In this document: positions 27,428 to 50,050 of the stretch, piece by piece
Layout of the letters: every line of letters starts with the position of its first letter
How positions within the stretch are numbered: position 1 is the first letter of the stretch
Assembly (NCBI GenBank): GCA_964543275.1
Contig: CAZIWW010000001.1
Span: 36,003-86,096, forward strand
Reading direction: 5' to 3'
DNA length: 50,094 nt
From: an uncultured Bdellovibrionales bacterium
GTDB taxonomy: Bacteria > Patescibacteriota > Minisyncoccia > Moranbacterales > UBA11712
The notes under the pieces: model-generated
The model's input: the letters and a program-made list of their open reading frames with translations, nothing else
Told to the model about the DNA's origin: nothing
Database searches by the model: none
Translations under genes and position numbers: made by a program

Positions 27428-27524
27428 CTCTACGAATTACGAATCTCATACGAATATACGAACACAATTTTTTTCGTAATTCGTATATTCGTAGAGCGTC
27501 AGCGCGTTCGTAATTCGTAGAGAG
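27428..27524. repeat. TACGAAT-family hairpin element in the mraZ leader
   Basis: CTCTACGAATTACGAATCTCATACGAATATACGAA (27428-27462) pairs with TTCGTAATTCGTATATTCGTAGAG (27473-27496) and TTCGTAATTCGTAGAGAG (27507-27524). Confidence 0.7.
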
Positions 27525-27531
27525 TAACTAA

Positions 27532-27966
27532 ATGTTCATCGGCGAGTATTCACATACCATAGATCCTAAAAAAAGAGTGGCTATTCCGTCCAAGTTTCGG
27601 GATGATTTTAAAGGTAGGGCGGTTATAACTAGGGGACTGGACAAATGTTTGTTTGTCTATCCGCTTCAAACTTGGGAAGATTTATCCTCTAAATTGGGAA
27701 GTCTTCCAATGGGCGAAGCAGGAACAAGAAGTTTCGTAAGATTGATGCTGGCTGGAGCGGTGGATGTTGACATCGATAAAATGGGAAGGATTCTAGTTCC
27801 GGATTATCTAAAGGAATACGCCGGGCTTGGCAAAGAAGTGGTAATAGCCGGTCTATATAATCGTTTGGAAATCTGGGACGATAAGAAATGGAAGTCGTAT
27901 AAAAAGGATGCTGAAAAAAACACGGATGAGATTGCCGAGCAGTTGGGGAAACTGGGAGTGTATTAG
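27532..27966 (+). CDS. mraZ: Transcriptional regulator MraZ
   Basis: MFIGEYSHTIDPKKRVAIPSKFR ... ITRGLDKCLFVYP; duplicated SpoVT/AbrB-like halves; first gene of the dcw cluster. Confidence 0.9.
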   Translation: MFIGEYSHTIDPKKRVAIPSKFRDDFKGRAVITRGLDKCLFVYPLQTWEDLSSKLGSLPMGEAGTRSFVRLMLAGAVDVDIDKMGRILVPDYLKEYAGLGKEVVIAGLYNRLEIWDDKKWKSYKKDAEKNTDEIAEQLGKLGVY

Positions 27967-27969
27967 TGT

Positions 27970-28090
27970 AAATGTCAAATTAAAAATTTAAAAGCTCAAA
28001 TGTCAAATCAAATCCAAAATTCGAAGATAAAAAATTTAGTCGTTTGAATTTTGGATTTAGTTTGGCGTTTGGATTTTGAAATTTGGATTT
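27970..28090. repeat. Hairpin element, AAATCCAAA family, between mraZ and rsmH
   Basis: ...CAAATCAAATCCAAAATTCGAAG pairs with CGTTTGAATTTTGGATTTAG...GGATTTTGAAATTTGGATTT. There is a 13-nt exact complement, AAATCCAAAATTC. Confidence 0.6.
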
Positions 28091-28098
28091 ATAGCAGT

Positions 28099-29034
28099 AT
28101 GGTTCACAAGTCAGTATTGCTAGGGGAGGCAATTGAAAATTTAAACCTTAAGCGGGGAGATATCGTGATAGACGGGACGCTGGGTAGCGGTGGGCATATG
28201 GTTGAAATTCTAAAAAGAGTAATGCCTGGAGGAAAATTAATCGGTATCGACTGGGACGAAAGAGCGATTTTAAAATTCAAGAAAAGACTGCGGGAGGATG
28301 ATATCCTTATTCCAAAAAGAGATCTGATTTTAGTGAACGACAATTACGCGAATATAGATAGCATTCTTAGGGGGCTCGGTGTAAAAACTGCGGACGCTGT
28401 TTTATTGGATTTAGGATTCAGCTCTGATCAAATTGAAAACGCTGAAAGGGGATTTAGTTTTCTGAAGGATGGGAATTTGGATATGCGCTATTCTCCTGAA
28501 ACGCAAAGTCGAACGGCCGCTAACGTAGTTAATGATTATTCCCAAGAGGAATTAAAAGATATTTTTCAAAGATTTGGCGAAGAGAGATTTTCCGGCAGGA
28601 TTGCCAGAGCTATAGTTGAGTCTCGCAGAGCCAAGCCTATTAAAAGAACTTTAGAGTTAGTTGAAGTAATTAGACGGGCGATTCCTAAAAAGTTTGCGAG
28701 AGGCAGAATTCATCCGGCCACGCGGGTTTTCCAGGCTTTAAGAATTGAGGTAAACCGGGAGCTTGAGAATTTAGAGAAATTTCTCGACGAAGTTTTAAAT
28801 AATCTGACTAGCGGGGGGAGGTTAGTCATTATCAGCTTTCATTCGCTGGAAGACAGAGTAGTTAAAAATTTTTTTAAGGCGAATAAAGATCGGTTAAAAA
28901 TTGTAACTAAAAAGCCGATTGCTCCTTCGCGGGAGGAAATTGCATACAATCCGAGAAGCAGAAGCGCGAAGTTGAGAGCGGCGGAGAGGATCTCTACGAA
29001 TTACGAATCAAGTACGAATATACGAATAAACTGA
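28099..29034 (+). CDS. rsmH: 16S rRNA (cytosine1402-N4)-methyltransferase RsmH
   Basis: MVHKSVLLGEAIE..DGTLGSGGH..., HSLEDR and RSRSAKLRAAE. Start moved to ATG 28099. The last 14 codons are encoded by a TACGAAT repeat arm. Confidence 0.9.
   Translation: MVHKSVLLGEAIENLNLKRGDIVIDGTLGSGGHMVEILKRVMPGGKLIGIDWDERAILKFKKRLREDDILIPKRDLILVNDNYANIDSILRGLGVKTADAVLLDLGFSSDQIENAERGFSFLKDGNLDMRYSPETQSRTAANVVNDYSQEELKDIFQRFGEERFSGRIARAIVESRRAKPIKRTLELVEVIRRAIPKKFARGRIHPATRVFQALRIEVNRELENLEKFLDEVLNNLTSGGRLVIISFHSLEDRVVKNFFKANKDRLKIVTKKPIAPSREEIAYNPRSRSAKLRAAERISTNYESSTNIRIN
28992..29027. repeat. TACGAAT-family left arm inside the rsmH 3' end
   Basis: CTCTACGAATTACGAATCAAGTACGAATATACGAAT. A degenerate partner, ATTCGTTCATCGTATTGATCCGTAATTCGCG, lies near 29078-29108. 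Confidence 0.65.
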
Positions 29035-29154
29035 CTGGAAGCTTCGTTTTATTTAAGGATTATATCGTGGGAGCCCTATTCGTTCATCGTATTGATCCGT
29101 AATTCGCGCAGAAAAAAACATAAAAACAAAATTAACCTAGGGGGCTCGAAGAAG

Positions 29155-29517
29155 ATGAGCCGATTTCTAACTATCACCAGCTCCAATTCCGTAAATTTTG
29201 GCGAAAGAAAAAAAACTATCAAGAACCGTCGCATCAAGATAGGCAATGTTACTATCAGCTTTTTACTGGTGGTTTTAATTTGCTCTCTAGGCGTTTATTA
29301 TATCTTTCAAGTAAATAATTTAGCCACTAAGGGTTACGAAATACGGGAATTAGAGAAACAACTTCAAGTACTTAGGAATAAAAATGAAGAGCTGAAGATT
29401 CAATCAGCCGAGCTTAAGTCAATGTATAGAATAGAAGAGAAGACGCGAGAGCTCAACATGGCGGCTCCAAAAAACGTGAGCTATATCAATTTGCCGGGAC
29501 CAGTGGCATTGAAGTAA
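29155..29517 (+). CDS. FtsL-like cell-division protein (TM plus coiled coil)
   Basis: Position between rsmH and ftsI. Start at ATG 29155, following AGGGGG. One TM (VTISFLLVVLICSLGVYYIF), then a heptad-rich segment. Confidence 0.5.
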   Translation: MSRFLTITSSNSVNFGERKKTIKNRRIKIGNVTISFLLVVLICSLGVYYIFQVNNLATKGYEIRELEKQLQVLRNKNEELKIQSAELKSMYRIEEKTRELNMAAPKNVSYINLPGPVALK

Positions 29518-29712
29518 TTTAGATTGTCTGCTGATTATCCCGCTATAGCGGGACCCCGCCGCGGCGGTGGCGAATCTTTTACGAATATACGAATCTTGCT
29601 TCAAGATAAAGGCTTTGTTATATAATTCTGTTTTTTCTAGATCTGTATGTTCATACTTAATTCGCCTGCTTGTCGGCAGGAAGGTAATTCATAGACAATC
29701 TATTTGCAATGA

Positions 29713-31638
29713 ATGGCGGGAAGATTAAAAAGCGCAAATTTTTCGAAATCTAATTGCCGAAGCAAAAGACACTCCGCCAAAGACGGCTGGAGGATTTATT
29801 CTATAGTTGTCTTTATTTTTTTGATAGTTGGCGCGATTTTCTTCAGGTTGTACACCTTGCAGATTCTGGCTTACGGGTATTACACGGAGCTGGCCTCTAA
29901 TCAGCACAAGATTTACGAAAGTCTAATTCCAAGAAGAGGCGAGATTTTTGTTAAGGACGGAGAGGGATATTATCCTGTGGCGGTGAACAAAGAATTGGCA
30001 TTGGCCTTTGCGGTTCCTAGGGAAATTGAAGATCCTAGAAGCGCGGCTCGGGAAATTTCTGCTGTGCTGGAGCTTGACGAAGAAGAGCTTGTAAAAAAGC
30101 TAGGCAAGTCGGATGAATGGTACAGAGTTATCAAGCACAAAGTTTCTAATGACAAGGTCAAAGAGCTTAAAAACAAGGAAATAAAAGGATTATATTTTTC
30201 TCCCGAGTCGGAAAGATGTTATCCGGCTGGAGCTTTTGCTTCTCAAGTGCTAGGTTTTGTTGGTTCGGACGGAAAAGAATCCAGAGGGCGTTACGGGATT
30301 GAAGCCTATTGGGACAAGGAGCTTCGAGGCCGCGAAGGAAGACTGGAGCAGGAGCGGGACACTGGAGGCCGATGGATATCTATAAGTGAAAAGAAAATAT
30401 ATCCGGCGGAGAACGGAGCCGACATATACCTTACTCTTGATCACACTATTCAATATCGAGCCGAAATGGCTATTAAAAAGTCGGTGGAAAAGCACGGGGC
30501 GGATAGCGGGAGCATCGTCATTATGGAGCCTTACAGCGGAGCTGTTCTGGCTATGGCTAGCTATCCCGCTTTTAATCCCAACGAATTTTCCAAAGTTGAA
30601 GATATGTCGCTTTTTAAAAATCCAGTGGTGAGCGGAACTTATGAATGTGGATCGGTCTTCAAACCAATAACTATGTCCGGTGGAATTGATTCCAAAGTAG
30701 TTACTCCCGATACAACTTACGTGGATACCGGAAGTGTGCGTGAAGCTGGCTATACTATTAAAAATTCTGACTGTAAGGCGCATGGAACGCAAACTATGAC
30801 TCAAGTTTTAGAGGAGTCGCTTAACACTGGAGCTATCTTTGTGGAAAAGCTTTTGGGGAACCGGCGGTTTTACGAGTATGTTAAAAATTTTGGCTTTGGA
30901 GAAAAAACTGACATTGATACCATTGGTGAAGTTAGCGGGGATATAACGGCGCTTAAAAGCTTGAAAAATATAAACGCTTTTACAGCTTCCTTTGGCCAGG
31001 GAATTGCCATGACGCCGCTTCAATTAGTGAATGCGTTTGCGGTAATAGCTAACGGTGGTAAATTAATGAAGCCTTATTTGGTTGAGAAGCTGGTTTACGA
31101 CGACGGAAGCGAAAAGGTCAATGTCCCGATTGAGAAGAGGAGAGTTATTTCCAAAGAGGCCTCTATTGATCTGGCTACTATGCTGGTAAGCGTTGTCGAG
31201 AACGGTCACGGAAAAAGAGCTGGAGTGCCCGGCTATCTGGTGGCTGGGAAAACCGGAACAGCTCAAATTCCCAGGAAAGACGGAGCTGGATACGAGGAGG
31301 GGGCTCACATCGGCTCCTTCGCCGGTTTTGCTCCGGCTTATGATCCTAGGTTTGTGATGCTTGTAAAGGTTGACAATCCAAAGGATGTGGAATGGGCCGA
31401 GTCCAGCGCGGCGCCTGTTTTTGGAGAGATGACTAAATTCCTGCTGGATTATTTTGGCGTTGAGCCAACCGAGGAATACACTCAAGCGGATGTCGATCTT
31501 TTCAATAGAACTCACGACGTTTCAATTTACAGCCTGGAAAAAGAAGAGGAGCAGGCTCAACCGCAACCGGTCCCGGAGAAAGATAATAAGGATAAGAAGA
31601 AGAAAAGAAATAAAGATAAAAAGAAGAAAAAACAGTGA
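29713..31638 (+). CDS. ftsI: Penicillin-binding transpeptidase FtsI/PBP2-like
   Basis: N-terminal TM. SxxK (GSVFKP), SxN (ESLNTG) and KTG (GKTGTAQ) motifs. Lys-rich C-terminal tail. Confidence 0.85.
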   Translation: MAGRLKSANFSKSNCRSKRHSAKDGWRIYSIVVFIFLIVGAIFFRLYTLQILAYGYYTELASNQHKIYESLIPRRGEIFVKDGEGYYPVAVNKELALAFAVPREIEDPRSAAREISAVLELDEEELVKKLGKSDEWYRVIKHKVSNDKVKELKNKEIKGLYFSPESERCYPAGAFASQVLGFVGSDGKESRGRYGIEAYWDKELRGREGRLEQERDTGGRWISISEKKIYPAENGADIYLTLDHTIQYRAEMAIKKSVEKHGADSGSIVIMEPYSGAVLAMASYPAFNPNEFSKVEDMSLFKNPVVSGTYECGSVFKPITMSGGIDSKVVTPDTTYVDTGSVREAGYTIKNSDCKAHGTQTMTQVLEESLNTGAIFVEKLLGNRRFYEYVKNFGFGEKTDIDTIGEVSGDITALKSLKNINAFTASFGQGIAMTPLQLVNAFAVIANGGKLMKPYLVEKLVYDDGSEKVNVPIEKRRVISKEASIDLATMLVSVVENGHGKRAGVPGYLVAGKTGTAQIPRKDGAGYEEGAHIGSFAGFAPAYDPRFVMLVKVDNPKDVEWAESSAAPVFGEMTKFLLDYFGVEPTEEYTQADVDLFNRTHDVSIYSLEKEEEQAQPQPVPEKDNKDKKKKRNKDKKKKKQ

Positions 31639-31645
31639 ACTGTGT

Positions 31646-31753
31646 CTAAAATCCGAAATCCGAATTTCAAAATCCAAAACAAATCCAAATGATTAAAATC
31701 CAAAATTAGAAACAGTTTTAGTAATTTGAATTTCGATATTGTTTTAAATTTCG
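31646..31753. repeat. Imperfect hairpin element, AAATCCGAA/AAATCCAAA family
   Basis: CTAAAATCCGAAATCCGAATTTCAAAATCCAAAACAAATCCAAATG... pairs with GTTTTAGTAATTTGAATTTCGATATTGTTTTAAATTTCG. Confidence 0.45.
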
Positions 31754-31777
31754 TGCTGAATTACAAGTTTTATTGTT

Positions 31778-33094
31778 ATGAAATCTAAAAAAATTATCAT
31801 TCTAGAAAAAATTCTTAGAGCCTTGTCGGAAAGGGCTATCCAGAAATTCAAGCCTCGCATTGTCGGCGTGACCGGTTCGGTTGGCAAAACTTCTACTAAG
31901 GAAGCTATTTTTACCGTGTTGGCTTCGAAATACCGCGTGAGGCAGAGTGAGAAAAATTATAATAATGAAATTGGACTGCCTCTGGCTATCTTGGGCCTCG
32001 AAAGCGGCAAGGGAAGTTTTTGGAGGTGGATGCTTGTTTTAATTCAAGCTGTTAAAGTAATTTTATTTACTCGAGCCAAGGATTATCCCGAAGTGTTGGT
32101 GTTGGAAATGGGAGCTGATCGGCCGGGTGATATTAAGTATCTAGTTGATTTTATTCGCCCGGAAGTTGGAGTGGTAACCGCGGTTGGCGTCAGCCACTTG
32201 GAGTTTTTTAAGGATAAAAAACATATTGCTAGAGAAAAAAGCGTTTTGGTGAAAGTTCTTAGGAAAGATGGACTGGCAGTTCTTAATTGGGATGATGAGG
32301 AGACAAGAGCGATGGCCGATTCGATTAAAGCTAAAAAAATATCCTATGGATTTTCGAGTGAAGCTGATGTTCAAGCATCCGACATATTTTTTGGTTACGA
32401 AAGGTCTAAGGGTTATTACGGAGATGATATTAACAAGATAAAAGGAATTAGTTTCAAGTTGAGCTATGAGGGGACAACTATTCCGATAAGGCTTATTCGC
32501 TCGGTGGGCAGGCCCCAAATTTATGCGAGTCTCGCGGCGGCGGCTGTGGGAATTCATTTTGATATGAATCTTTTGGAGATTGCTGGGGCGCTCAAAGATT
32601 TTCAGGCGCCAGCGGGTCGGTTGAGTATCATTGACGGCATCAAAAATACCATCATTATTGAAGACAGCTATAACGCGGCGCCGCAGTCCACTTTGGCGGC
32701 TCTGGAAGTTTTGGAGAAAATTGAAGCTCGGCGAAAACTGGCAGCTTTGGGAGATATGCTGGAGCTGGGAGAAGATACCGAGTCGGGCCATCGGGAAGTA
32801 GGGAGAAAGTCGGCGGAAGTCGCCCAAGTCTTATTTACGGTTGGAGAAAAAGCTAAATTCATTTCCGACGAAGCTTTGAAAAAGGGAATGCCCAAAGAGA
32901 ATATTTTTGAATTTGAAAATTCCGACGAAGCCAAGAAAGTTATTCAAAGGGAATTAAAAGAAGGAGATATTATTCTGATTAAGGGTTCTCAAGCGGTGCG
33001 AATGGAAAAAATTTCAGAGGAAATAATGCGCTACCCGGAGCAAGCCGGAAAGTTATTGCCTCGACAGACGATGGAGTGGAAGAGCAAGTCATAG
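31778..33094 (+). CDS. murF: UDP-N-acetylmuramoyl-tripeptide--D-alanyl-D-alanine ligase
   Basis: VGVTGSVGKTSTKE P-loop, NYNNEIGLPLAIL and DSYNAAP are typical MurF motifs. Confidence 0.8.
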   Translation: MKSKKIIILEKILRALSERAIQKFKPRIVGVTGSVGKTSTKEAIFTVLASKYRVRQSEKNYNNEIGLPLAILGLESGKGSFWRWMLVLIQAVKVILFTRAKDYPEVLVLEMGADRPGDIKYLVDFIRPEVGVVTAVGVSHLEFFKDKKHIAREKSVLVKVLRKDGLAVLNWDDEETRAMADSIKAKKISYGFSSEADVQASDIFFGYERSKGYYGDDINKIKGISFKLSYEGTTIPIRLIRSVGRPQIYASLAAAAVGIHFDMNLLEIAGALKDFQAPAGRLSIIDGIKNTIIIEDSYNAAPQSTLAALEVLEKIEARRKLAALGDMLELGEDTESGHREVGRKSAEVAQVLFTVGEKAKFISDEALKKGMPKENIFEFENSDEAKKVIQRELKEGDIILIKGSQAVRMEKISEEIMRYPEQAGKLLPRQTMEWKSKS

Positions 33095-33207
33095 TGGAAA
33101 AGGTTATTGGCGGTAAGGCTTGTCACGAGTTATGAATTATGGGTTGAAAGCCTGTTTAGGCTTATATAAAGTAAATTTTGGCTGTGGATAATTCCTCATT
33201 TTGCCTA

Positions 33208-33236
33208 TTGACAAGAAATAGCTGGAGGAGTATAAG
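33208..33236 (+). promoter_or_regulatory. Strong promoter candidate with no recognisable downstream gene
   Basis: TTGACA (33208-33213), 17-nt spacer, TATAAG (33231-33236). TGTGGATAA lies at 33183-33191. Confidence 0.5.
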
Positions 33237-33513
33237 AGAATCAAGGGGTAAAATTAAATAAATTGAGTAAAAAGTGCTTACGGTTGAGGCAATTAATAAT
33301 AGGGGTTGGCCGCGAGTACTTTTACAAAAGCGATTATCGATTTTAGGGTGGTCGCTTTTTGTTTTTCTAAAGTGTCAGGCTCTTTAAAAACCTGTCTTTA
33401 TGATCCAAATTGTCGAGCTTTGAATGAAATTTTTTTGTTCAGGGCTTGGTAATTCTAAAAAATAAAAAAATAAAATTCCCAGGAGCAAGCCTGGGAGAAA
33501 GGATGGGAAAAAG

Positions 33514-33705
33514 ATGGAGGAGGAGAAGAAAGTTTCCACCTACACTGACTACACTGAAATGGTAGAGGCAATTTGCCGCCCGGATCGGTTGCGGGAGATC
33601 CGGGAGGAAGTGAAGGAAAACGGGAGGAGATTAGAGTATTTTTACGACCTCCTCCTGCAAAAGGCGAGGTTATACCTCGCCGAGGTGGAAAAGGATTTTT
33701 TTTAA
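33514..33705 (+). CDS. Hypothetical 63-aa acidic protein
   Basis: ATG preceded by GGGAGAAAGGA. Helix-prone sequence with no motif recognised. Overlapping ORFs in other frames look spurious. Confidence 0.3.
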   Translation: MEEEKKVSTYTDYTEMVEAICRPDRLREIREEVKENGRRLEYFYDLLLQKARLYLAEVEKDFF

Positions 33706-33916
33706 AAAGGAGGAAACCAAATTGCGACATCGAAAAAAAGCCTTTGCTCACAGGAAGCATCCAGAGCGGGGCTTTTTAAATTTGATGAGGGGCTTAGCAT
33801 CAAGCAAGCGCGTAAAAAGATATTCCGTAATATAGATTACGATTTGAATTATTATTGAGGATGGAAGTACAGGTTGTATTATTTTTTTTAGTTTTAGTTG
33901 GAATTAGCTGAAATTA

Positions 33917-35940: not shown

Positions 35941-36094
35941 ATTGTTTTTGCACTTAAGTATATTTAAAGTCAATTATAACATTGGATAACATTAGTTTGA
36001 GATTTTATCAGCAAATTGGTCTTACACCGCAATTTTTAAAAGTCCTCGGCGAGGTTTCCCACCAAGAACTTTTCTTATTAAGGATAAGGAAGGG

Positions 36095-38298: not shown

Positions 38299-38418
38299 CT
38301 CTACGAATTACTAAACAATTACAAAAATACGAAAACTTATAAACACCTATCCCCTAAAACTACAACTTATTTAATGTGCGATTTCGTATTTTTTGTTAAA
38401 TTTAGTAGTTCGTAGAAA
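38299..38418. repeat. Hairpin element (TACGAA variant) filling the porG-porD spacer
   Basis: CTCTACGAATTACTAAACAATTACAAAAATACGAAAAC pairs with GCGATTTCGTATTTTTTGTTAAATTTAGTAGTTCGTAGAAA. Loop of about 40 nt. Confidence 0.6.
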
Positions 38419-38426: not shown

Positions 38427-38687
38427 ATGGATTGGCAAAACATCGAAAAAGGCGCTGTCATCAAGCACGATATCAAAAAGTCGCCTCGTACCGGCGACTG
38501 GCGATATATGAAACCCGAAGTTGATAAGAAGAAATGCATTGGCTGCGGGCAGTGCGTTTCTCATTGCCCGGAAGGCTGTATAACTTTAGGCAAAGATGGC
38601 AAGGCCGAGATTAATTATGATTTTTGCAAAGGCTGCGGAGTGTGCGCGCAGATTTGCCCGAGAAAAGCGATTAAGATGAGGAAGTAG
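38427..38687 (+). CDS. porD: Pyruvate:ferredoxin oxidoreductase, delta subunit (2x[4Fe-4S])
   Basis: CIGCGQCVSHCP and CKGCGVCAQICP cluster motifs; 86 aa. Confidence 0.8.
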   Translation: MDWQNIEKGAVIKHDIKKSPRTGDWRYMKPEVDKKKCIGCGQCVSHCPEGCITLGKDGKAEINYDFCKGCGVCAQICPRKAIKMRK

Positions 38688-38718
38688 TATCTAGTATATT
38701 GTATCTTGCATTTTGTAT
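38688..38718. repeat. Left inverted-repeat arm of four-helix-bundle gene cassette 2
   Basis: TTGTATCTTGCATTTTGTAT matches 19 of 20 positions of the reverse complement of 39091-39125. Confidence 0.65.
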
Positions 38719-39091
38719 GGTTACGGATAATAAGAAGATAAAATCATTTACCGATTTATATGCTTGGCAAGAAGCGCATAAATTAGTTTTAATGGTTTAT
38801 GCGGAAACTGAAAAATTTCCTAAAAGAGAAATTTTTGGTTTGACTGTCCAGATAAGACGGTCAGTTGTTTCTATTACATCTAATATCGCGGAAGGCTTTA
38901 ACAGAAATGCTTCTAAGGATAAATGTCAGTTTTATTCTATGGCGCACGGATCATTAACTGAATTGCGAAATCAGTTGCTAGCGACAAGAGATGTCGGGTA
39001 TTTAAGCCAAGCAATTTTTAATAAGCTTGCCGATCAAACGGTTGTTGTTGCTAAGTTGATTAATGGCTTGAGAAAAATAAGAAACAAATGA
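38717..39091 (+). CDS. Four-helix-bundle protein (23S rRNA IVS protein / Avd-like family) inserted in the por operon
   Basis: FTDLYAWQEAHKLVLMVYAETEKFPKREIFGLTVQIRRSVVSITSNIAEGFNR...GSLTELRNQL is the canonical family pattern. Confidence 0.8.
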   Translation: MVTDNKKIKSFTDLYAWQEAHKLVLMVYAETEKFPKREIFGLTVQIRRSVVSITSNIAEGFNRNASKDKCQFYSMAHGSLTELRNQLLATRDVGYLSQAIFNKLADQTVVVAKLINGLRKIRNK

Positions 39092-40269
39092 TACAAGATA
39101 CAAAATACAAGATACAAAATACGAAACAGCTCGCTCTCACCGGCGGGGCCGCTGCCGCCGAAGCTCTCAAGCAAATTAACCCGGATGTGATGCCGGTTTA
39201 TCCTATCACGCCACAGACGCCGATTATAGAAACTTTTGCTAAGATGGTGGCTGATGGCTTAGCCGATACGGAGATTATGGAAGTGGAATCGGAACACAGC
39301 GCTATGAGCGCGGCGGTTGGCGCGCAAGCGGCCGGAGCGCGGGCGATGACAGCCACTAGTTCCCAGGGACTAGCGCTAATGAGCGAGATTCTTCCCATTG
39401 CTTCTGGGTTGCGCTTGCCGATATTAATGTTTATTAGCGCGCGGGCTTTGAGCGCTCCCATAAATATCCATTGCGATCATCAGGATGTAATGGCTGTTCG
39501 AGATTTGGGATGGATTCAAATTTTTTCGGAGAGCGCACAGGAAGTTTACGACAACGCTTTTATAGCTCTTCGTCTGGCGGAAAAAACGCGTCTGCCGGCG
39601 ATGGTAATTATGGATGGTTTTACTACCTCGCATAGCGTAGAAAATTTAGAAGTTTTGGATACAGCCGCGGCCAGAAAATTTATCGGTGAATATAAGCCGG
39701 AAAATTATTTGCTGGACACGGATAACCCGGTAACTTTTGGGCCGGTGGGGCTTCCTAATTCGTATTTTGAATTCAAGCGAGCGCAGATCGAGGCAATGGA
39801 TGGGGTGATTGGGGAATATATAGAAATTTGCAGAAATTATGTTGAAGTTAGCGGACGCGATTATGATATATTCGAAGGCTATAACTTGGATGACGCTGAA
39901 AAAGTTATTGTTGTTGCCGGTTCCACAGCCGGGACAGCTAAAGTGGTTGTGGATGAATTGCGTGAGAGAGGAGAAAAAGTAGGACTACTTAAGATAAAAT
40001 TGTTTAGGCCGTTTCCGTACGGGGAAATAAAAAAAGCGCTTGAAGGCAAAAAACGTGTTGCCGTTTTGGATAGATCAGTTTCGTTTGGGAGTGTCGCCCC
40101 GCTTTATGGCGAGATAGTAAACTCGACTTTTCGGGATGATGTTCAGTCTTGCATTTTTGGATTAGGCGGACGTGAGATTTTTGGGGAGGATATTGCAAGG
40201 GTGTTTGAAGAAATGGGAGATAGAGGAGATCGGGAGCGCAAAGTGGTTAATTATATTGGATTAAAGTGA
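39088..40269 (+). CDS. porA: Pyruvate:ferredoxin oxidoreductase, alpha subunit
   Basis: LTGGAAAAEALKQINPDVMPVYPITPQTPIIE. The ATG overlaps the preceding stop (ATGA). Confidence 0.85.
   Translation: MIQDTKYKIQNTKQLALTGGAAAAEALKQINPDVMPVYPITPQTPIIETFAKMVADGLADTEIMEVESEHSAMSAAVGAQAAGARAMTATSSQGLALMSEILPIASGLRLPILMFISARALSAPINIHCDHQDVMAVRDLGWIQIFSESAQEVYDNAFIALRLAEKTRLPAMVIMDGFTTSHSVENLEVLDTAAARKFIGEYKPENYLLDTDNPVTFGPVGLPNSYFEFKRAQIEAMDGVIGEYIEICRNYVEVSGRDYDIFEGYNLDDAEKVIVVAGSTAGTAKVVVDELRERGEKVGLLKIKLFRPFPYGEIKKALEGKKRVAVLDRSVSFGSVAPLYGEIVNSTFRDDVQSCIFGLGGREIFGEDIARVFEEMGDRGDRERKVVNYIGLK
39091..39125. repeat. Right inverted-repeat arm of four-helix-bundle gene cassette 2
   Basis: ATACAAGATACAAAATACAAGATACAAAATACGAA. 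Also encodes the porA N-terminus (IQDTKYKIQNTK). Confidence 0.65.
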
Positions 40270-40272
40270 TTT

Positions 40273-40371
40273 CTCTACGAATTACGAATTTTGTACGAAT
40301 ATACGAATGAATGTATAAAAGCAATACATTCATAAAGTAATCTATTTGTGTGTGATTCGTAATTCGTAGAG
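40273..40371. repeat. TACGAAT-family nested hairpin filling the porA-porB spacer
   Basis: CTCTACGAATTACGAATTTTGTACGAATATACGAAT ... ATTCGTAATTCGTAGAG. Inner stem ATGAATGTAT / ATACATTCAT. Confidence 0.7.
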
Positions 40372-42996: not shown

Positions 42997-43004
42997 AAAA
43001 TCTT

Positions 43005-43025
43005 TTTAGGGATCCGATCCCTAAA
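43005..43025. repeat. REP-like 21-nt palindrome, upstream copy (inverted orientation)
   Basis: TTTAGGGATCCGATCCCTAAA. Matches 20 of 21 positions of the reverse complement of the other two copies. Confidence 0.7.
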
Positions 43026-43042
43026 TTCCTCAAACTAATGAA

Positions 43043-43696
43043 ATGAGAAGGAAAGTAGAGCTTGTCAGCGGTCAATATTATCATGTTTATAACCGAGGTG
43101 TTGAGAAACGCGATATCTTTTTGGATGATTCTGACTATCTTCGCTTTTTGAAGTCCTTGAAGTGCTTCAATCAGGAAGATCCTATCTTCAGCTTGTTTTG
43201 GAATAACATTAAAAAGAGAAATTTAGGGGTCGGATCCCTAAAATCAAGGAAGTTGGTAGATATCGTAGCGTATTGCCTGAATCCTAACCATTTCCATTTA
43301 CTCTTAAAACAGGTAATCGACGGTGGCATTTCTGAATTTATGAGAAGGTTGGGTACAGGCTATACAGGTTATTTTAATCACAAATATCAACGATCGGGTG
43401 TTTTGTTTCAAGGAAGATTTAAATCAATTCATATAAGTTCAAATTCGTATCTTTTATATTTGTCTGCTTACATAAATGAAAATAATTTTATTCATGGATA
43501 CACAGAAAATAGCCGGAATTGGAAATATTCAAGTTATTCCGATTACATAGGGGAAAGGCAGGGAGAGTTGTGCAACAAAGATATTATTCTTGATCAGTTC
43601 GGATATGACTTCAAAGGATATGAAGAATTTTCCAGGGAAAACGCTTTATATCTTAAGGAGAGAAAGGAAGATGAGAAATATTTATTGGAAAACTGA
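43043..43696 (+). CDS. IS200-like / REP-associated (RAYT-like) Y1 HUH transposase
   Basis: YHVYNRGVEKRDIF, the HUH motif NPNHFHLLL, LFQGRFKS, and a Tyr-containing helix LSAYINENNFIHG. No tnpB partner. Confidence 0.7.
   Translation: MRRKVELVSGQYYHVYNRGVEKRDIFLDDSDYLRFLKSLKCFNQEDPIFSLFWNNIKKRNLGVGSLKSRKLVDIVAYCLNPNHFHLLLKQVIDGGISEFMRRLGTGYTGYFNHKYQRSGVLFQGRFKSIHISSNSYLLYLSAYINENNFIHGYTENSRNWKYSSYSDYIGERQGELCNKDIILDQFGYDFKGYEEFSRENALYLKERKEDEKYLLEN
43222..43242. repeat. REP-like 21-nt palindrome, copy inside the transposase CDS
   Basis: TTTAGGGGTCGGATCCCTAAA, identical to 43700-43720. Translated in frame as LGVGSLK. Confidence 0.7.
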
Positions 43697-43699
43697 CCT

Positions 43700-43720
43700 T
43701 TTAGGGGTCGGATCCCTAAA
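43700..43720. repeat. REP-like 21-nt palindrome, downstream copy
   Basis: TTTAGGGGTCGGATCCCTAAA, 4 nt after the transposase stop and 6 nt before the clpB ATG. Confidence 0.7.
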
Positions 43721-43725
43721 TTTTT

Positions 43726-46332
43726 ATGGACTTAAATAGGTTTACTCTAAAATCCCAAGAAGCCTTGCAAGGAGCGCATCAGTTAGCTCAAAGCCAGAGT
43801 CAAAATGTTGTGGATGTTTTGCATTTGCTTTATGTGCTTATTACCCAGGAAGAAAGTGTTGTTCCAGCCATCCTGGATAAATTGAATGTAAAAAGGGATG
43901 AGTTGAAAAACGATATTTTTTCCGAGATAGAAAAAATTCCCAAAGTTTCTAGCACGCAGGTTTATTTATCTTCTGAAATGGCGGGCGTTCTGCAGGAGTC
44001 TTTCCGCGAAGCCCAAAGTTTAGGAGATAGGTTTGTTAGTACCGAGCATTTATTTCTAGCATTGCTAAATGTGGCTAGTCGTGCTAAAAAATTTTTAGAA
44101 GAAAGCGGCATCAATCGTAGCGAAGTCTTAAAAGTTATGAAAGAAGTAAGGGGAAACCAAAGCGTTGATAGTCCGTCGCCGGAAGGGAAATATCAGGCTT
44201 TGGAAAAATACACCATTAATCTTACCCGCGAAGCCAGTCAGGAAAAATTGGATCCGGTAATTGGAAGAGAAGAGGAAATCCGAAGAGTTATGCAAGTTCT
44301 TACGCGACGCACCAAGAATAATCCGGTGCTTATTGGAGAAGCTGGGACGGGTAAGACTGCCATTGTTGAAGGTTTAGCCCAAAGAATAGCGACCGGCGAT
44401 GTTCCTGAAAGCTTAAAGGGCAGGGAAATTTTGGCTTTGGACTTGGGTATGATTTTGGCCGGTTCGAAATTCCGTGGAGAATTTGAGGAAAGATTTAAAG
44501 CTGTCCTAAACGAGATCGAAAAGTCGGAAGGAAAATATATCTTGTTTATTGACGAGCTGCACACTTTAGTTGGAGCCGGAGCTATTGAGGGAGCAATGGA
44601 CGCCTCTAATATGCTTAAGCCGGCTTTAGCCAGAGGAAAACTGCGGGCTATCGGCGCGACTACGCTCAAAGAATATCAAAAGTATATTGAAAAGGATGCG
44701 GCTTTTGAGCGACGCTTTCAGCCTGTGCTGGTTAAAGAACCGACGGTTGAAGATGCCATTGCCATTCTCCGCGGTCTTAAGGAGAAGTATGAAGTTCATC
44801 ACGGGGTGCGCATCACTGACGGGGCTATCGTGGCGGCGGCCAATCTTTCTAACCGCTATATTACCGATCGCTTTCTGCCTGACAAAGCGGTTGATCTTAT
44901 AGACGAAGCTACTTCCGCTCTCCGAATGGAAATTGACAGCATGCCTGGGGAAATAGATAATCTGGAGCGTGAGAAAAGAAAACTAGAGATAGAAAGAGAA
45001 GCTTTAAAGAAGGAAAAAGATGAAGAGTCGAAGAAGAAAGTGAAAGAAATTGAAAAAAAATTAGCCGATGTGAAAGAAAAGGCTAATAGATTAAAGCTGC
45101 AGTGGAAGAACGAGAAGGATCTTATAACTAATATCAGAGGCTATAAAAGTGAAATCGATCGCTTAAAAGGAGAGTCTGACGTTTTGGAGCGCAGAGGCGA
45201 GCTAAGCAAGGTGGCCGAAATTCGCTACGGGAAAATCCCAGAGCTTAAAAAGAAAATAAAAAAAGAGCAGGGAAAATTAAAAGTTCTGCAGAAGAATAAT
45301 CCTATTCTCAAGGAGGAGATTACTGAAGAAGATGTTGCCAAAGTGGTTTCCCGATGGACCGGCGTTCCGGTCGCCAAAATGCTGGAAGGAGAGATGGAAA
45401 AGTTAGCTAAAGCTGAAAAAGCCTTAAGTTTAAGAGTAATCGGGCAGGAGGAAGCTGTTTCGGCCGTGTCAAACGCTCTTCGCAGGTCGCGAGCTGGTAT
45501 TGCTGAAGAGAGCAGACCTGTCGGATCTTTTATTTTTCTCGGTCCTACCGGAGTAGGCAAGACAGAGTTAGCCAAAGCGCTGGCGGAATTTCTTTTTAAC
45601 GATGAAGACGCAATGATAAGGGTCGATATGAGCGAATATATGGAGCAGCATAGCGTAGCTAAGATGATTGGATCGCCTCCCGGTTATGTGGGGTACGAGG
45701 AAAGCGGGCAGTTGACGGAAAAAGTAAGAAGACGTCCCTATAGCGTGATACTTTTTGACGAGATTGAAAAAGCCCATCCGGATGTTTTTAATATGTTGCT
45801 TCAAATTTTGGATGACGGGCGTCTTACTGACGCCAAGGGGCGCGTGGTTAGTTTTAAGAACGCGGTTATAATTATGACTTCTAATGTGGGAAGTGACATA
45901 ATTTATAAAATGCGGGAGATTGGCTTCAAGAACGAAAGAAAAAGAGAAATCTTAAAAGAAGAGGAGATGAAAGAAAGGGTTATGCGAGCTCTTCGGGAAA
46001 AGTTTAAACCAGAATTTTTGAATCGAGTGGATGAGATAATTATTTTCCATCCTCTGAACACCGGGCAAATTAAGAAGATTATCGATCTTCAATTGAATCA
46101 AGTTAAGCGGAGATTGGCTGGCAGAAATATCCAGTTGGAAGTAACATCGGCGGCGAAAGAGTTGCTTGTCAGGAAGGGGTTCGACCCGGTTTTCGGAGCC
46201 AGGCCTCTGAAGCGAACGATCCAAAATTTAGTCCTTGACGAGTTGGCTCTTAGGATTGTAGAAGGAAAGGTTAAAGAAGGAGACAAGGTGAAGGTGGATG
46301 CTCGAGGCGGGAAAATAGTCATAAGGGAATAA
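43726..46332 (+). CDS. clpB: ATP-dependent chaperone ClpB
   Basis: 868 aa. Clp N domain, two AAA+ modules (GEAGTGKTA; GPTGVGKTE) and a long middle coiled coil. Confidence 0.95.
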
Positions 46333-46490
46333 GTCATAAGCGGCAGATCTAGTTTTAGGCCATAAGTTATGGGAAATTTTCTGCGACTTACATTCTATTC
46401 TACGATTTAACCTACTTGCCCGAGCGATCAGTGGTCTTTTGGCAGGGCGTGAGCCGCCAAAGGTCTATTTTCCATCAACCTACTAAATTT

Positions 46491-47243
46491 ATGTTTTGGA
46501 ACTTCAGAATTTTCTTGCTTTCAGTTTTGTTTTTCGCGGCTCTGCGGGCAACCCTTATTTACTCAGATTATATTTTCTGGATTTGGCTTTTATTTGGACT
46601 GGTTCTGTTATTTAGCACAAGGAGGTTAGCCAAGAGGTGGTTTTTTGCGATTCTGCCTCTACTCCTGTCAGCGAGTTCGGTTTCGCTCTTATTTTTTATT
46701 GACTCGCTGAATTTCATAAAAGTTTTTGTTTTTTTGACAGCCGCTGTTTTTTATTTTTGTCTTCTAGGAAGCTATCGTTTAAGTAAATATAATAAAGATC
46801 AAACAGCCAAGGGGATGTATAACACAGCCGCTTTCTCCGCGCTTTTCTTTTTCTACGCGGCTTCTTACGGATGGTACCTTAATGAAATTAGACTGCCGGT
46901 TTGGGAGTTAACCGTGATTTTAATGGCGATTTTTGCCGTGATCACTTTTTTCATTTCGTCTTTATCTTTTACTGTTAATCAACTAAGCTCTCACGAACGA
47001 TGGCTGTACGCCTTCATTCTGGCTCTCGCTTTAACTCAAGTGGTTTGGATTCAAAGTTTCTGGCCTTTTGGATACTTGACCGTGGGGACTGTTGCTCTCA
47101 TAATCTACTATGTCAGCTGGGACATTATCCGCAATTATTTTTCAGATAAGTTTAGCTTTAAGGGGGTTGTTTTTAATCTTGCTTTTCTGTTTGGATCCAT
47201 AGCGATTCTACTCGTCAGCTCTAAATGGTATCCAGTTGTTTAA
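46491..47243 (+). CDS. Hypothetical polytopic membrane protein
   Basis: Start moved to ATG 46491. About seven hydrophobic segments. No motif recognised. Confidence 0.5.
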   Translation: MFWNFRIFLLSVLFFAALRATLIYSDYIFWIWLLFGLVLLFSTRRLAKRWFFAILPLLLSASSVSLLFFIDSLNFIKVFVFLTAAVFYFCLLGSYRLSKYNKDQTAKGMYNTAAFSALFFFYAASYGWYLNEIRLPVWELTVILMAIFAVITFFISSLSFTVNQLSSHERWLYAFILALALTQVVWIQSFWPFGYLTVGTVALIIYYVSWDIIRNYFSDKFSFKGVVFNLAFLFGSIAILLVSSKWYPVV

Positions 47244-47319
47244 GGGTTTATGATTTACGATTTAAGAATTATAATTTTGGTTGCGGATCTGTGTTCTTGG
47301 GTTGCTTAATTAACGCATT

Positions 47320-48534
47320 ATGAGTGATGTCAAGAGCAATAAATCTTACACAAGCCGAAAATCTCGCGTGTTGCACCGCGGTGCGAGGTTCGTTTTTTTT
47401 GCGGTCTTTATTTTTGTGGTAGCCGGTGTAAGTTCAGTAATAGTGGATAAGTATTTATTTCCTTATCTCACTAGCGTTGATTGGCTTAATAAGTATGACC
47501 TTTTCAAAAAGGGAGCGGAGAATATAGTAGTGATTAACAAAACAGAAGAAGTTGTTATTAGCGAAGAGCAGACCATTGCCAAGTATTCCGACAAAGCCGC
47601 TTCCAGCGTGGTGGAGATAGTTTCCAGGAAGAAGAGCGGCAAGAAAGTAAAATCGTTGGATAAAAACAAAAGTGAGATAGGCAGCGGTTTAATTATTACG
47701 GCCGACGGTCTGGTTATAACTCACCGCGAGGCGATAATTGACAAAAGCGCCGAGTACAGAATTTTTACTTATGATAACAAATCCTACATCGGGAAACTTC
47801 TGATGATTGACTCCTTTTCTAATTTAGCGTTTCTAAAATTGGAGGGAGCGACTAATCTTCCCACAGCGTCTTTTATCAATCCGGACGATATTAAAATCGG
47901 GGCTAAGGTTGTGGTTATAGGAAAGAGCGGATCTAATTCTCAAACATTCTTTAAATCCGGCCTCATTAGTCAGTTTGCCAAGAATTATTCCATAAGCGGG
48001 CCATTGGCCTCGTCCGAGAAACTGCAGGGAGTTTTTTTTCTAGACGCTGATTTTGAGAATGATTGGGATGAAAGTTTAATTGGAAGCGCGGTGGTTGATT
48101 ACAATGGGGATGTGATTGGAATTTTGGGAGCCGTAAAAGATGATCAGCGAATGAGATTTTTTGTAGCTCCGGTAAATCATATCCAAGAGCTTACCAAACG
48201 TTATCTCGAGGAAGGGGTTGTTGAAAGAAGTACTCTAGGAATTTACTATGTTCCGCTGACCAAGGAGACAGCCTATTTGAGCGGGAGCGGTCTGGATCGT
48301 GGAGCTTTAGTTTACTCTTCGAGTCTTCAGCAAGGCTTGGCAGTTATTGCCGGCAGTCCGGCGGATAAGGCGGGTCTTCGGATAATGGATATAATCATAA
48401 GCGTTAATGGAGAGGAAATTAACTCTGATCAAAATTTGGCCTATCTTATTTCGAAATATAAACCTGGGGATGAGATTACTCTTAAAATTGTAAGGGATGG
48501 AGAAAGAATAGATGTTAAAGCAATATTGGAGTGA
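47320..48534 (+). CDS. HtrA-like protein with PDZ domain; catalytic triad apparently substituted
   Basis: Colinear with 41695-42996, but VTNKHVV becomes ITHREAI, NDIAILKI becomes SNLAFLKL, and GNSGGPLLN becomes ESLIGSAVVD. PDZ retained (GSPADKAGLRIMDIIISVNG). Confidence 0.6.
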   Translation: MSDVKSNKSYTSRKSRVLHRGARFVFFAVFIFVVAGVSSVIVDKYLFPYLTSVDWLNKYDLFKKGAENIVVINKTEEVVISEEQTIAKYSDKAASSVVEIVSRKKSGKKVKSLDKNKSEIGSGLIITADGLVITHREAIIDKSAEYRIFTYDNKSYIGKLLMIDSFSNLAFLKLEGATNLPTASFINPDDIKIGAKVVVIGKSGSNSQTFFKSGLISQFAKNYSISGPLASSEKLQGVFFLDADFENDWDESLIGSAVVDYNGDVIGILGAVKDDQRMRFFVAPVNHIQELTKRYLEEGVVERSTLGIYYVPLTKETAYLSGSGLDRGALVYSSSLQQGLAVIAGSPADKAGLRIMDIIISVNGEEINSDQNLAYLISKYKPGDEITLKIVRDGERIDVKAILE

Positions 48535-48739
48535 TATAGAGACGGTAATTGTTTATGGTGGATGGAAATAGGCTTAAAGCTGCGGGACTGGTTGTAAGTC
48601 GTAAGCCGCAGGAAATTTTCTTGCAGCCGATCTGTAATTTGTAACTTAACTTACCGTTAATGACCTATCTCCAAATAACTTTTCCTTGACACAACAGCTG
48701 GATTTGATAGTCTTTATAAGTAATTTTTAGACACTTTTC

Positions 48740-49045
48740 ATGATAGCCATTATAAGAACTGGAGGGAAACAATACCTAGCTAAAAAAGGCGATAAGCTAA
48801 AAGTGGAAAAGCTGGAAGGCAAAGTTGGTGATAAGATAACTTTCAGCGAAGTTTTGTTTTTGGGCGATGAGAAGGAAGTTAAGATAGGCAAGCCTACTAT
48901 TGAAGACGCTAAAATAGAAGCTAAAATTATACGGCAGGATAAATCCAGAAAAGTAATCATAGTCAAGCACAAGCCGAAGAAAAGATATTTAGTGAGAAAA
49001 GGACATCGGCAGTGGTTTACGGAGGTGGAGATTGTAAAGGCATAG
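48740..49045 (+). CDS. rplU: 50S ribosomal protein L21
   Basis: MIAIIRTGGKQYLAKKGDKLKVEKL ... KHKPKKRYLVRKGHRQWFTEVEI. Confidence 0.9.
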   Translation: MIAIIRTGGKQYLAKKGDKLKVEKLEGKVGDKITFSEVLFLGDEKEVKIGKPTIEDAKIEAKIIRQDKSRKVIIVKHKPKKRYLVRKGHRQWFTEVEIVKA

Positions 49046-49060
49046 TGTTTGGGAAGCACA

Positions 49061-49091
49061 AAAAAGCGGGCATGTCGAAGCCCGTTTTTTG
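49061..49091. terminator. Bidirectional rho-independent terminator between rplU and recR
   Basis: AAAAAA-GCGGGC-ATGTCGAA-GCCCGT-TTTTTT. Confidence 0.7.
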
Positions 49092-49106
49092 TTGTAGTGT
49101 TTTTTT

Positions 49107-49228
49107 AAATTTCTAATTAATCTAATTTCTAATTGATCTAATCAATACCTAAGCGCTAATGCCCAATTGCTGTTTGGTTATTGGGATTTATTTAGGTCAA
49201 TTAGATTAATTAGAGCAATTAGAAATTT
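49107..49228. repeat. Hairpin element, AATTAGAT family
   Basis: AAATTTCTAATTAATCTAATTTCTAATTGATCTAAT... pairs with ...AGGTCAATTAGATTAATTAGAGCAATTAGAAATTT. The loop holds CCCAAT/ATTGGG. The element abuts the recR stop. Confidence 0.65.
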
Positions 49229-49819
49229 TCACATCTTCTTTCGCCCCTCGATCGCTCCAGTTAGTGTAACTTCGTCCGCGTATTCAATGTCCCCACCGGT
49301 TGGCAGTCCGCGGGCCAAGCGAGTAATTTTAATCCCAAGCGGCTTAATGAGGCGCGCTAGATAGAGAGCAGTGGCTTCGCCTTCGGTGGTTGGATTAGTG
49401 GCGATGATAACCTCTTTTACCGGAGATTTTTTTATCCGAGCGATTAGTTCATTTATTTTCAAATCTTGCTTTTTCCCTGTCGGTGAATTTATGGTTCCGC
49501 CTAAAACATGGTACAGCCCGTTCATTTTTTTTGTTTTTTCGATAGAAATAATGTCCAGCGGTTCTTCAACTACGCAAATAGTAGATTGGTCACGGTTTTT
49601 GTCTTGGCAGATAGAGCATAGGCCATTTTCGGAAATATTGAAACACTGTGGGCAGTAATGAATTTTGGCCTTAAGCTCTTTTAGGGTGTTAGCAAAATTA
49701 TCCAGCCTCTCTTGATCTTGTTTGAATAAATACAAAACTAGCCGCTCGGCCATCTTGGGTCCGACCGACGGCAAAGAAGCGAAGTGATTGATGAGTTTTT
49801 GGAAGGATTTAGGAAACAT
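49229..49819 (-). CDS. recR: Recombination protein RecR
   Basis: HhH N-terminus (LINHFASLPSVGPKMAERL), Cys4 finger (CPQC...CSIC) and a Toprim domain. Confidence 0.9.
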   Translation of the reverse strand: MFPKSFQKLINHFASLPSVGPKMAERLVLYLFKQDQERLDNFANTLKELKAKIHYCPQCFNISENGLCSICQDKNRDQSTICVVEEPLDIISIEKTKKMNGLYHVLGGTINSPTGKKQDLKINELIARIKKSPVKEVIIATNPTTEGEATALYLARLIKPLGIKITRLARGLPTGGDIEYADEVTLTGAIEGRKKM

Positions 49820-49825
49820 GGATTT

Positions 49826-50050
49826 CTCTACGAATTACGAATTTTATACGAATATACGAATATACGAATATACGAATATTCTAAGTCATAGGGGAATAGA
49901 GTATAGGCAGTAGGTCAAGTCGTAGAGTATAGGTTATAAGAACTTTATTCGAATCCCTATGGTCTACAACTTACAACCAGTCTTACAGCTTACATCTTAT
50001 TTCCCTACAACCTAGATTAGTATATTCGTAAGTGATTCGTAATTCGTAAA
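49826..50050. repeat. Composite nested palindromic element directly upstream of recR
   Basis: Outer TACGAAT arms (49826-49880 and 50018-50050). Four tandem ACGAATAT units. Inner ATAAG/GTAG arms versus CTACAAC/CTTACA arms (49881-50015). Confidence 0.7.

Follow-up and report, generated by a model that had tools for sequence, protein, structure and literature searches.

What are the near-identical palindromes that recur in leaders and operon spacers of a 50,094-nucleotide (nt) stretch of DNA from an uncultured patescibacterium, and what places them immediately before start codons? The stretch, here called the window, covers positions 36,003 to 86,096 of contig CAZIWW010000001.1 (assembly GCA_964543275.1, GTDB lineage Moranbacterales). 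A first reading made from its sequence alone had proposed a family of hairpin elements built on the heptamer TACGAAT, of a kind resembling miniature inverted-repeat transposable elements (MITEs) or repetitive extragenic palindromic (REP) sequences, or else RNA-structural, with an effect on translation or mRNA stability. We find that the family is real, and that its members are probably MITE-like, gene-less miniatures of a palindromic cassette which encodes a GxxExxY protein and lodges at the junction between one gene's stop codon and the next gene's start. The element is of a mobile-looking kind and has most likely not been described before; in the literature searched there was no match to 14-mers of its arm.

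Six palindromic elements with two-box arms

The window contains six palindromic elements, four intact and two decayed, all within 27.4-50.1 kb (Table 1). We counted 31 TACGAAT heptamers in the window, where dinucleotide-preserving shuffles give 7.2 ± 2.5, and nine occurrences of the 17-mer CTCTACGAATTACGAAT, allowing up to three mismatches, where 0.22 are expected. A profile hidden Markov model (HMM), trained on 140 arms from other genomes and then run on the window, recovered exactly six elements, adding one weak partner arm (29645-29664) to the list of the sequence-only reading, and gave no match in window bases 1-27,000. The profile thereby returns the sites first noticed by eye.

Each arm is laid out as two boxes, CTCTACGAATTACGAAT and TACGAATATACGAAT, on either side of a variable spacer of 3-4 nt (N4), with CTC...GAG always at the outer ends of the arms. 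Elements measure 97-226 nt and their 17-nt outer repeats are exact or differ by one mismatch. Identity between the segments that start at 40268 and at 49821 is 90% across 50 nt. The description of the copies as near-identical holds for the arms but not for the centres, which are unrelated in sequence and in length (~10 to ~150 nt). Intact copies are predicted to form RNA hairpins far more stable than shuffled sequences, and the two decayed copies fold weakly (Table 1).

Pfam agrees with the gene labels given earlier (mraZ, rsmH, an ftsL/DivIC-like gene, a penicillin-binding protein (PBP) gene, four por subunit genes and recR) with one correction, namely that the diverged copy sits between the por gamma and delta genes. 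Copies had been placed outside coding sequence or at its very edge, which is true in general but not of copy B, whose left arm lies wholly inside the rsmH frame. Each of the intact copies C', C and D fills the entire spacer between two co-directional genes.

Some arm pairs enclose a gene for a putative nuclease

Some arm pairs enclose an open reading frame (ORF) of ~128 aa that belongs to the GxxExxY family (PF13366, E ~1e-26 to 1e-29; also TIGR04256). To remove ascertainment bias, we gathered GxxExxY homologues by protein search and fetched their contigs afterwards. The gene lay exactly between TACGAAT-type arms in all 14 loci examined, which represent about a dozen distinct insertion sites; ten were ascertained by protein homology only, the others being L008 (Planctomycetota), L036, L080 and L130 (L numbers denote compared loci). 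At every locus the order is host stop codon, left arm, GxxExxY ORF, right arm and host ATG, with the ORF starting 0-2 nt past the left arm in most Patescibacteria loci and the right arm ending 2-8 nt before the host ATG in most loci. The interrupted junctions are those of SHMT or epimerase to NTP transferase, T2SSF to pilin, T2SSE to T2SSF (pilB-pilC), rpsG-fusA, gatC-gatA, an MBL-fold gene to a hypothetical gene, and two Bacteroidota operons. Between cassettes the arms are 87.5% identical at the nucleotide level against 66% for the ORFs, and within a single cassette the left and right arms agree at 92.8%, at times with a common 'variable' spacer.

All 42 homologues compared conserve the predicted catalytic residues D72 and E82-x-K84 as well as the GxxExxY motif, and an AlphaFold2 model of the protein (predicted local distance difference test score 90) matches PD-(D/E)XK nucleases. 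We rejected any structure match as fixing its substrate, since the relatives found by Foldseek were all generic members of that fold (Cas4, lambda exonuclease, tRNA-splicing endonuclease and Hjc; template-modelling scores 0.4-0.58). A comparison with solved structures gave no sequence match, and PADLOC returned a marginal match to Cas4 (E = 0.009). In a survey of PD-(D/E)XK proteins PF13366 was listed as 'unknown, multiple transfers' (PMC3424549); in the literature we searched, PF13366 and TIGR04256 are scarcely named, and nowhere on this topic. The cassette may be mobilised by its own putative nuclease. One Bacteroidota cassette (L243:1576-1690) has a tandem duplication that takes in the right arm plus the first 8 nt of the host gene, ATGGACTT, and this might bear on how the element integrates.

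Filled and empty junctions, and insertions in other places

Our comparison of junctions drew on eighty metagenomic PorA loci. In L120, L121, L122 and L127, which are among the closest relatives, porA and porB meet at a compact junction with no element (TAGATG, an ATGA overlap or TAAAATG). A TACGAAT element fills this junction in the window and in L124, and a hairpin of another family (TGTCATCCCGAGCG...) does so in L123 and L125. The porB start codon is TTG or GTG at the hairpin-filled junctions (window 40385, L123, L124, L125) and ATG at all the empty ones.

The por gamma-delta (porG-porD) junction is compact in distant relatives and carries a 95-146 nt hairpin in all close relatives, composed of TACGAAT words in the window, L120, L121 and L124 (the latter three being ORF-less) and of other words in L122, L126 and L127. 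At this same junction, where the window has the gene-less copy C', L080 has a full GxxExxY cassette. The junction accepts several kinds of insertion, since a Moranbacteria relative holds there a 344-aa gene (L013:6046-7080) with, judging from its sequence, solute-binding and ion-channel domains.

Elements are also found in other places. In L074 an RNase P RNA gene, full-length in other respects (RF00010, E = 1.4e-26), has a 97-nt copy inserted in one of its hairpin loops. In both L025 and L071 an aminoacyl-tRNA synthetase ORF of at least 530 aa runs in frame through one arm (LSTNYESDTN...). In its TACGAAT orientation the arm has a stop codon in no frame.

Distribution and placement at start codons

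We scanned GTDB species genomes for the exact 17-mer, with one genome per species, counts per genome that are lower bounds, and taxon labels as in the sequence records. It occurs in at least 115 stretches from at least 76 assemblies. Among the matches listed, 37 stretches are labelled Moraniibacteriota, and the other labels comprise Parcubacteria/Patescibacteria groups, Portnoy-, Nealson- and Falkowbacteria, Bacteroidota and one Planctomycetota metagenome-assembled genome (four loci); three matches in Nostoc are plain (TACGAAT)n heptamer runs. Genomes carry multiple copies, with six inside a 23-kb part of the window, at least nine loci in JAPLXG01 and at least six in JBAZBJ01.

The suspected bias towards start codons proved very strong. 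Among the matches listed, an ATG-initiated long ORF begins within 8 nt of the outer end ATTCGTAATTCGTAGAG in 51 of 127 exact copies, and in 37 of those 51 the distance to the ATG is 5 or 6 nt. The consensus up to the start codon reads ATTCGTAtATTCGTA-N3-4-ATTCGTAATTCGTAGAG-AAWTC-ATG, the C at position -1 being present in about 80% of start-proximal arms against about 10% for other genes of the window. In paired elements 0-11 nt separate the upstream gene's stop codon from the opposite (left) arm, and inward-facing pairs outnumber outward-facing ones by 42 to 1. A partner within 320 nt was found for ~57% of start-proximal arms; ~41% are true solos, which by inspection are placed in 5' leaders, with separate sigma-70-like promoters upstream of them (promoter assignments being consensus matches). 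A Shine-Dalgarno core 4-mer lies between -20 and -4 in 1 of 39 window genes, compared to 11.5% of random windows, and the organism evidently starts translation without relying on such sites.

A probable gene-less miniature of a putatively selfish cassette

Inverted repeats of fixed polarity, many copies, filled and empty junctions, insertions into RNase P RNA and in frame into a protein gene, and a gene-carrying partner support the MITE-like part of the first proposal. We postulate that the cassette could be selfish DNA whose arms are the sites recognised by its nuclease, and that gene-less copies, like MITEs, may depend on it in trans for their propagation or maintenance. Copies would survive solely at sites of little harm. 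An arm in TACGAAT orientation, being free of stop codons, could be read through, and an arm in ATTCGTA orientation would supply TAA/TAG stops and an A+U-rich unpaired leader ending in ...GAGAAATC right at the ATG. With both arms present, the transcript would form a long hairpin whose stem base brings the upstream stop beside the start of the next gene; a ribosome that terminates at this stop would melt the outer stem, and the tight translational coupling of empty junctions (ATGA, TAGATG) would thereby be kept. Solo right arms could be leftovers after deletion of the remainder, retained as the leader of the downstream gene. An effect of the element on translation or mRNA stability is plausible from its position.

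A number of observations weigh against this reading. First, the loops of gene-less copies contain no ORF remnant detectable by blastx, and the 50-kb window has no GxxExxY gene. Second, no identical cassette was found at two sites; every exact GxxExxY protein that we traced occurred in one genomic context, and recent transposition was rejected on this ground. Third, target-site duplications were not found, the longest direct repeats in the flanks of 44 elements being equal to those of a re-paired-flank null; a duplication of the overlapping ATGA stop/start as target site was likewise rejected, with no signal in the flank comparison. Fourth, presence and absence differ between species, as at the porA-porB junction, but not among contigs that are 99-100% identical, where octamer number alone varies. 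Fifth, PF13366 was sampled in two clades only. Lastly, some 40% of start-proximal arms are true solos, and random insertion followed by selection is insufficient to account for their strict 5-6 nt spacing and C at -1, which suggest instead that integration is targeted to start codons or that the arms serve as leaders.

We also entertain, more tentatively and as something less than an even chance, a wider proposal in which GxxExxY proteins would be the nucleases of an unrecognised class of prokaryotic mobile cassette. In this proposal each cassette would consist of a ~128-aa PD-(D/E)XK enzyme set between inverted arrays of the 7-nt word that it recognises. It would insert precisely where a stop codon is followed by the next start, or into structural RNA helices, and would duplicate no target sequence; it would occur in Patescibacteria, Bacteroidota and Planctomycetota and leave hairpins and solo arms as leaders in hosts without Shine-Dalgarno sites. 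If true, the same logic would extend to the four-helix-bundle intervening sequence (IVS) protein genes with word arms of their own, and it might also account for the start-proximal heptamer repeats of cyanobacteria and Beggiatoaceae. The cassette reading as such offers a concrete candidate for the missing partner of heptamer repeats beside start codons. It would give a genomic role to PF13366/TIGR04256, a widespread family of unknown function, and suggests a source for the 100-230 nt hairpin spacers in por, dcw, rpsG-fusA and gatCA operons of the tiny, packed genomes of Patescibacteria. For annotation, the elements produce false C-terminal tails, false N-terminal extensions, split RNA genes and breaks in metagenome assemblies; the RNase P RNA of L074 with its insertion, for instance, falls under the Rfam threshold.

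Alternative explanations

The alternative that survives best is that some factor acting in trans binds the arms as arrays of sites, which would constitute a leader for non-Shine-Dalgarno initiation or a regulon. Candidates for the factor are the ribosome, some RNA-binding protein, and the GxxExxY protein in the role of a regulator instead of a mobilising enzyme. We consider it unlikely, yet it keeps real weight because the cassette reading leaves the 5-6 nt spacing and the C at -1 unexplained. Both features, along with the fixed orientation, the solos in 5' leaders below sigma-70-like promoters, a genome without Shine-Dalgarno sites and the conservation across phyla of sequence rather than pairing, count in its favour. 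Such a role has been proposed for the TAACTGA heptamer repeats of Beggiatoaceae (MacGregor 2015, PMC4679880), and start-proximal heptamer arrays with unknown partners exist there and in Nostoc (PMC4679880; Pradhan et al. 2022, 10.1101/2022.06.06.494920). However, no functional theme unites the genes that follow the arms (mraZ, por subunits, recR, pilins, fusA, gatA and others), orthologous genes in close relatives do without the element, arms also abut stop codons and sit inside ORFs and RNase P RNA, and in full cassettes the spacing between right arm and host ATG varies from 2 to 8 nt.

Somewhat less probable again is a host RNA element, selected for the hairpin itself as a translational coupler, an RNase III site or a stabiliser of mRNA between cistrons, in which sequence matters via pairing only. 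The hairpins are very stable (z = -6.5 to -10.5), their stem base links upstream stop and downstream start at at least 12 co-directional junctions, and the porG-porD hairpin is kept in all close relatives despite differing words. The sequence-only reading had named compensatory changes as the check on an RNA-structural family. In 46 hairpins we counted 21 matched double variants against 7.7 ± 2.7 in a re-pairing null, but a further 153 consensus positions differ from the consensus in just one of the two arms. The surplus of matched variants is also confounded, consisting in part of genome-specific word variants common to solo arms. In the 37 hairpins whose transcription direction is known, arm appositions of G·T (53) and A·C (54) are equally frequent, and the sense strand folds better in 17 and worse in 20 (Wilcoxon p = 0.49). 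Moreover, the N4 spacers are not complementary, the conserved units being sequence words; ~40% of start-proximal arms are partnerless; and the porA-porB junction is empty in four close relatives. A search of Rfam 15 at gathering score matched only a tRNA in the window and nothing at six related loci. An RNA-structural family in the form first suggested thus finds no backing in Rfam, in strand asymmetry or in the pattern of variants; what is conserved is the word sequence rather than the pairing, and selection on an RNA structure is at least not detectable.

Expansion of simple sequence in place, by which heptamer microsatellites like those of cyanobacteria would arise through slippage, independently in many spacers, and become palindromic via template switching, is already disfavoured and seems to us very improbable. 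Unit number does change, from two to four copies of the 8-nt unit between same-species contigs; Nostoc has its plain (TACGAAT)n runs, another arm family shows a (TATAGAG)15 expansion in L124, and several other word-repeat hairpin families share the window. Against it, the CTC/GAG ends, the two-box N4 layout and the fixed polarity are conserved across phyla, the arms are tied strictly to one protein family (14 of 14 loci), and the same 35-nt arm is found at unrelated genes in unrelated genomes.

Hardly credible, lastly, are REP sequences or bacterial interspersed mosaic elements (BIMEs) mobilised by the window's gene resembling a REP-associated tyrosine transposase (RAYT), for although a Y1_Tnp gene is present (Pfam 35.3 bits) and the outer arm ends contain GTAG/CTAC, the palindrome on both sides of that gene, and in frame within it, is another one, TTTTAGGGRTCSGATCCCTAAATT, the gene scores 37.5 with the NCBIfam RAYT model (cut-off 80), the CTAC/GTAG arrangement is opposite to that of BIMEs, and TACGAAT arms are direct-repeat arrays instead of short G+C-rich self-palindromes. 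The REP-like part of the first proposal falls with this. The RAYT/IS200-like Y1 transposase gene itself occupies 43043-43696, with TTTTAGGGRTCSGATCCCTAAATT at 43004 and 43699 (region 43004-43722) and a third copy in frame inside the gene at 43221-43244.

Further candidates were rejected. The arm has no acceptable -35/-10 hexamers for a promoter, solos lie below separate sigma-70-like sites and copies occur inside operons. As a Shine-Dalgarno substitute pairing with 16S rRNA, GUAGAG mismatches the usual anti-Shine-Dalgarno sequence, and the genome avoids Shine-Dalgarno cores. A Fur/Zur-type operator would have a 7-1-7 palindrome and a gene theme, neither of which was seen; TCGTAAT presumably resembles a Bacillus Zur half-site, and the operator reading was rejected all the same. 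For a phage vector, a single phage carries the 17-mer, inside a gene and with the second box absent, which is at chance level. Integron attC sites have an R''/R' core (RYYYAAC ... GTTRRRY), unlike the ends CTCTACG ... CGTAGAG found here, and the neighbours of the elements are core housekeeping genes.

Comparison with known systems

Correia elements of Neisseria are MITEs that are co-transcribed into mRNA. TACGAAT elements are like MITEs of the Correia type in being short, non-coding and intergenic, with terminal inverted repeats, many copies and hairpins in the transcript, in a presence that varies among relatives, and in having ends common to a larger gene-carrying element. They differ in that they have no target-site duplication, in that their ends are arrays of a 7-nt word around unrelated centres, in a partner that encodes a ~128-aa PD-(D/E)XK protein and not a known transposase, and in a placement at stop and start codons that is precise to a few bases. 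Rickettsia palindromic elements are tolerated in frame in protein genes and in RNA genes, as TACGAAT copies are inside ORFs and in an RNA gene; we know of no gene-carrying partner, heptamer words or start-codon placement for them. REP/BIME-RAYT systems likewise combine extragenic palindromes with a dedicated small nuclease-type gene flanked by repeats, although the enzyme is of the HUH Y1 type rather than the PD-(D/E)XK fold and the repeat architecture is different. In phage T4, seg and mob are free-standing homing endonuclease genes between conserved genes. The cassettes share with them small nuclease genes that lie between operonic housekeeping genes and are patchy in relatives, whereas seg and mob are not known to have terminal inverted repeats or gene-less derivatives and each targets a specific site.

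TAACTGA repeats of Beggiatoaceae and the STRR-type heptamers of cyanobacteria (references as above) also consist of contiguous 7-nt words in a fixed 'forward' orientation, a few nt from the starts of genes without Shine-Dalgarno sites; they too have reverse-orientation copies within ORFs, no downstream functional theme and a patchy distribution over phyla, including Bacteroidetes. TAACTGA words nearly all form direct arrays, with one inverted set among 170 in a Beggiatoaceae genome (PMC4679880), whereas TACGAAT arms have two boxes and ~57% are paired as inverted repeats; a gene family is linked to the TACGAAT arms, and none has been reported for TAACTGA. The IVS of Coxiella 23S rRNA, with its S23p gene, has been termed selfish and is excised by RNase III (Warrier et al. 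2016, PMC4990558). Common to both are complementary ends that form a stem, an optional small ORF that tends to decay (here GxxExxY), and insertion into the helix of a structured RNA, here RNase P RNA (L074). Most TACGAAT copies, however, lie in mRNA spacers and not in rRNA, and their ORF family is GxxExxY and not PF05635.

Copies of the window and neighbouring repeats

Table 1. Positions, surroundings and predicted folding of the TACGAAT copies, and of a second hairpin family, in the window
Feature	Position	Strand	Setting and flanking codons	Arms and contents	Folding (kcal/mol; z)	Basis
Copy A, intact hairpin	27428-27524	+	mraZ 5' leader; ends 9 nt before mraZ ATG (27532)	left arm 27428-27463; inner right arm 27472-27495; outer right arm 27506-27522(24)	-42.4; -8.9	profile HMM, 17-mer, folding
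Copy B, half decayed	28992-29106	+	rsmH 3' end/ftsL-like spacer; rsmH stop 29032-29034; ftsL-like ATG 29155 downstream	left arm 28992-29027, exact; right arm 29078-29106, degenerate	z = -1.9	profile HMM, 17-mer
Decayed copy	29566-29670	+	ftsL-PBP gene spacer	left-arm remnant 29571-29594; weak partner 29645-29664	z = -2.4	repeat family D5, profile HMM
Copy C', diverged	38299-38418	+	fills por gamma-delta spacer; por gamma stop TAA 38295-38297, 1 nt upstream; por delta ATG 38427	derived words TACTAAA/TTTAGTA in both arms	-30.1; -6.5	17-mer, profile HMM
Copy C, intact	40273-40371	+	fills porA-porB spacer; porA stop TGA 40267-40269, 3 nt upstream; porB TTG start 40385, 13 nt downstream	terminal repeats perfect, 17 nt	-41.7; -8.4	17-mer, profile HMM
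Copy D, 226 nt	49826-50051	-	fills dnaB-recR spacer; dnaB stop TAA 50052-50054 abuts element; recR ATG 49819, 6 nt after	four 8-nt units TACGAATA; nested hairpin of another word family	-83.6; -10.5	17-mer, profile HMM
AAATCC/CCAAAT hairpins	10625-10683, 11234-11284, 12733-12782, 13155-13208, 15762-15893, 27978-28093, 31648-31751					

Copy A is assigned to the mraZ leader because a sigma-70-like site, TTGACT-17-TAAAAT (27317-27345), lies upstream of it. Between site and copy, at 27352-27427, we noted by eye three GTGG(A/G) repeats, which we take to resemble MraZ boxes, the operators of MraZ. In copy B the left arm encodes the last rsmH residues, ISTNYESSTNIRIN, and the Pfam MraW domain ends 13 residues short of the ORF end. 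The octamers of copy D number two, three or four across contigs of the same species.

Between por delta and por alpha the window has a gene for a '23S rRNA intervening sequence protein' (38717-39091), a predicted four-helix bundle (PF05635, TIGR02436) with arms of its own (GTAT... at 38687-38718 and ...ATAC at 39091-39122), built of inverted words that are 81-92% complementary. The right arm of this cassette is translated as the N-terminus of PorA, MIQDTKYKIQNTK. Homologues with similar arms lie at the same junction in L013, L080, L121 and L124, and others immediately upstream of porA in L125 and L128; in L124 (L124:~370-516) the left arm consists of about 15 tandem TATAGAG heptamers.

Other hairpin families accompany these elements. 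A second spacer-filling family has AAATCC/CCAAAT words in the 5' arm and GGATTT/ATTTGG in the 3' arm, ending just before starts (Table 1), and its mraZ-rsmH copy shows internal deletions of 56 nt and 140 nt in same-species contigs. A widespread family with the ends TGTCATYCYGAGCG...CGNTCGGAATGACA (L123:1421-1590, L125:1287-1390, L088:5790-5920) occupies the porA-porB junction in L123 and L125 and is nested in a TACGAAT hairpin in L088. A third word family of the window, CTTACA/TGTAAG, consists of a 59-nt pair (48554-48612 and 49956-50014) that is 73% complementary, the second member being nested within copy D.

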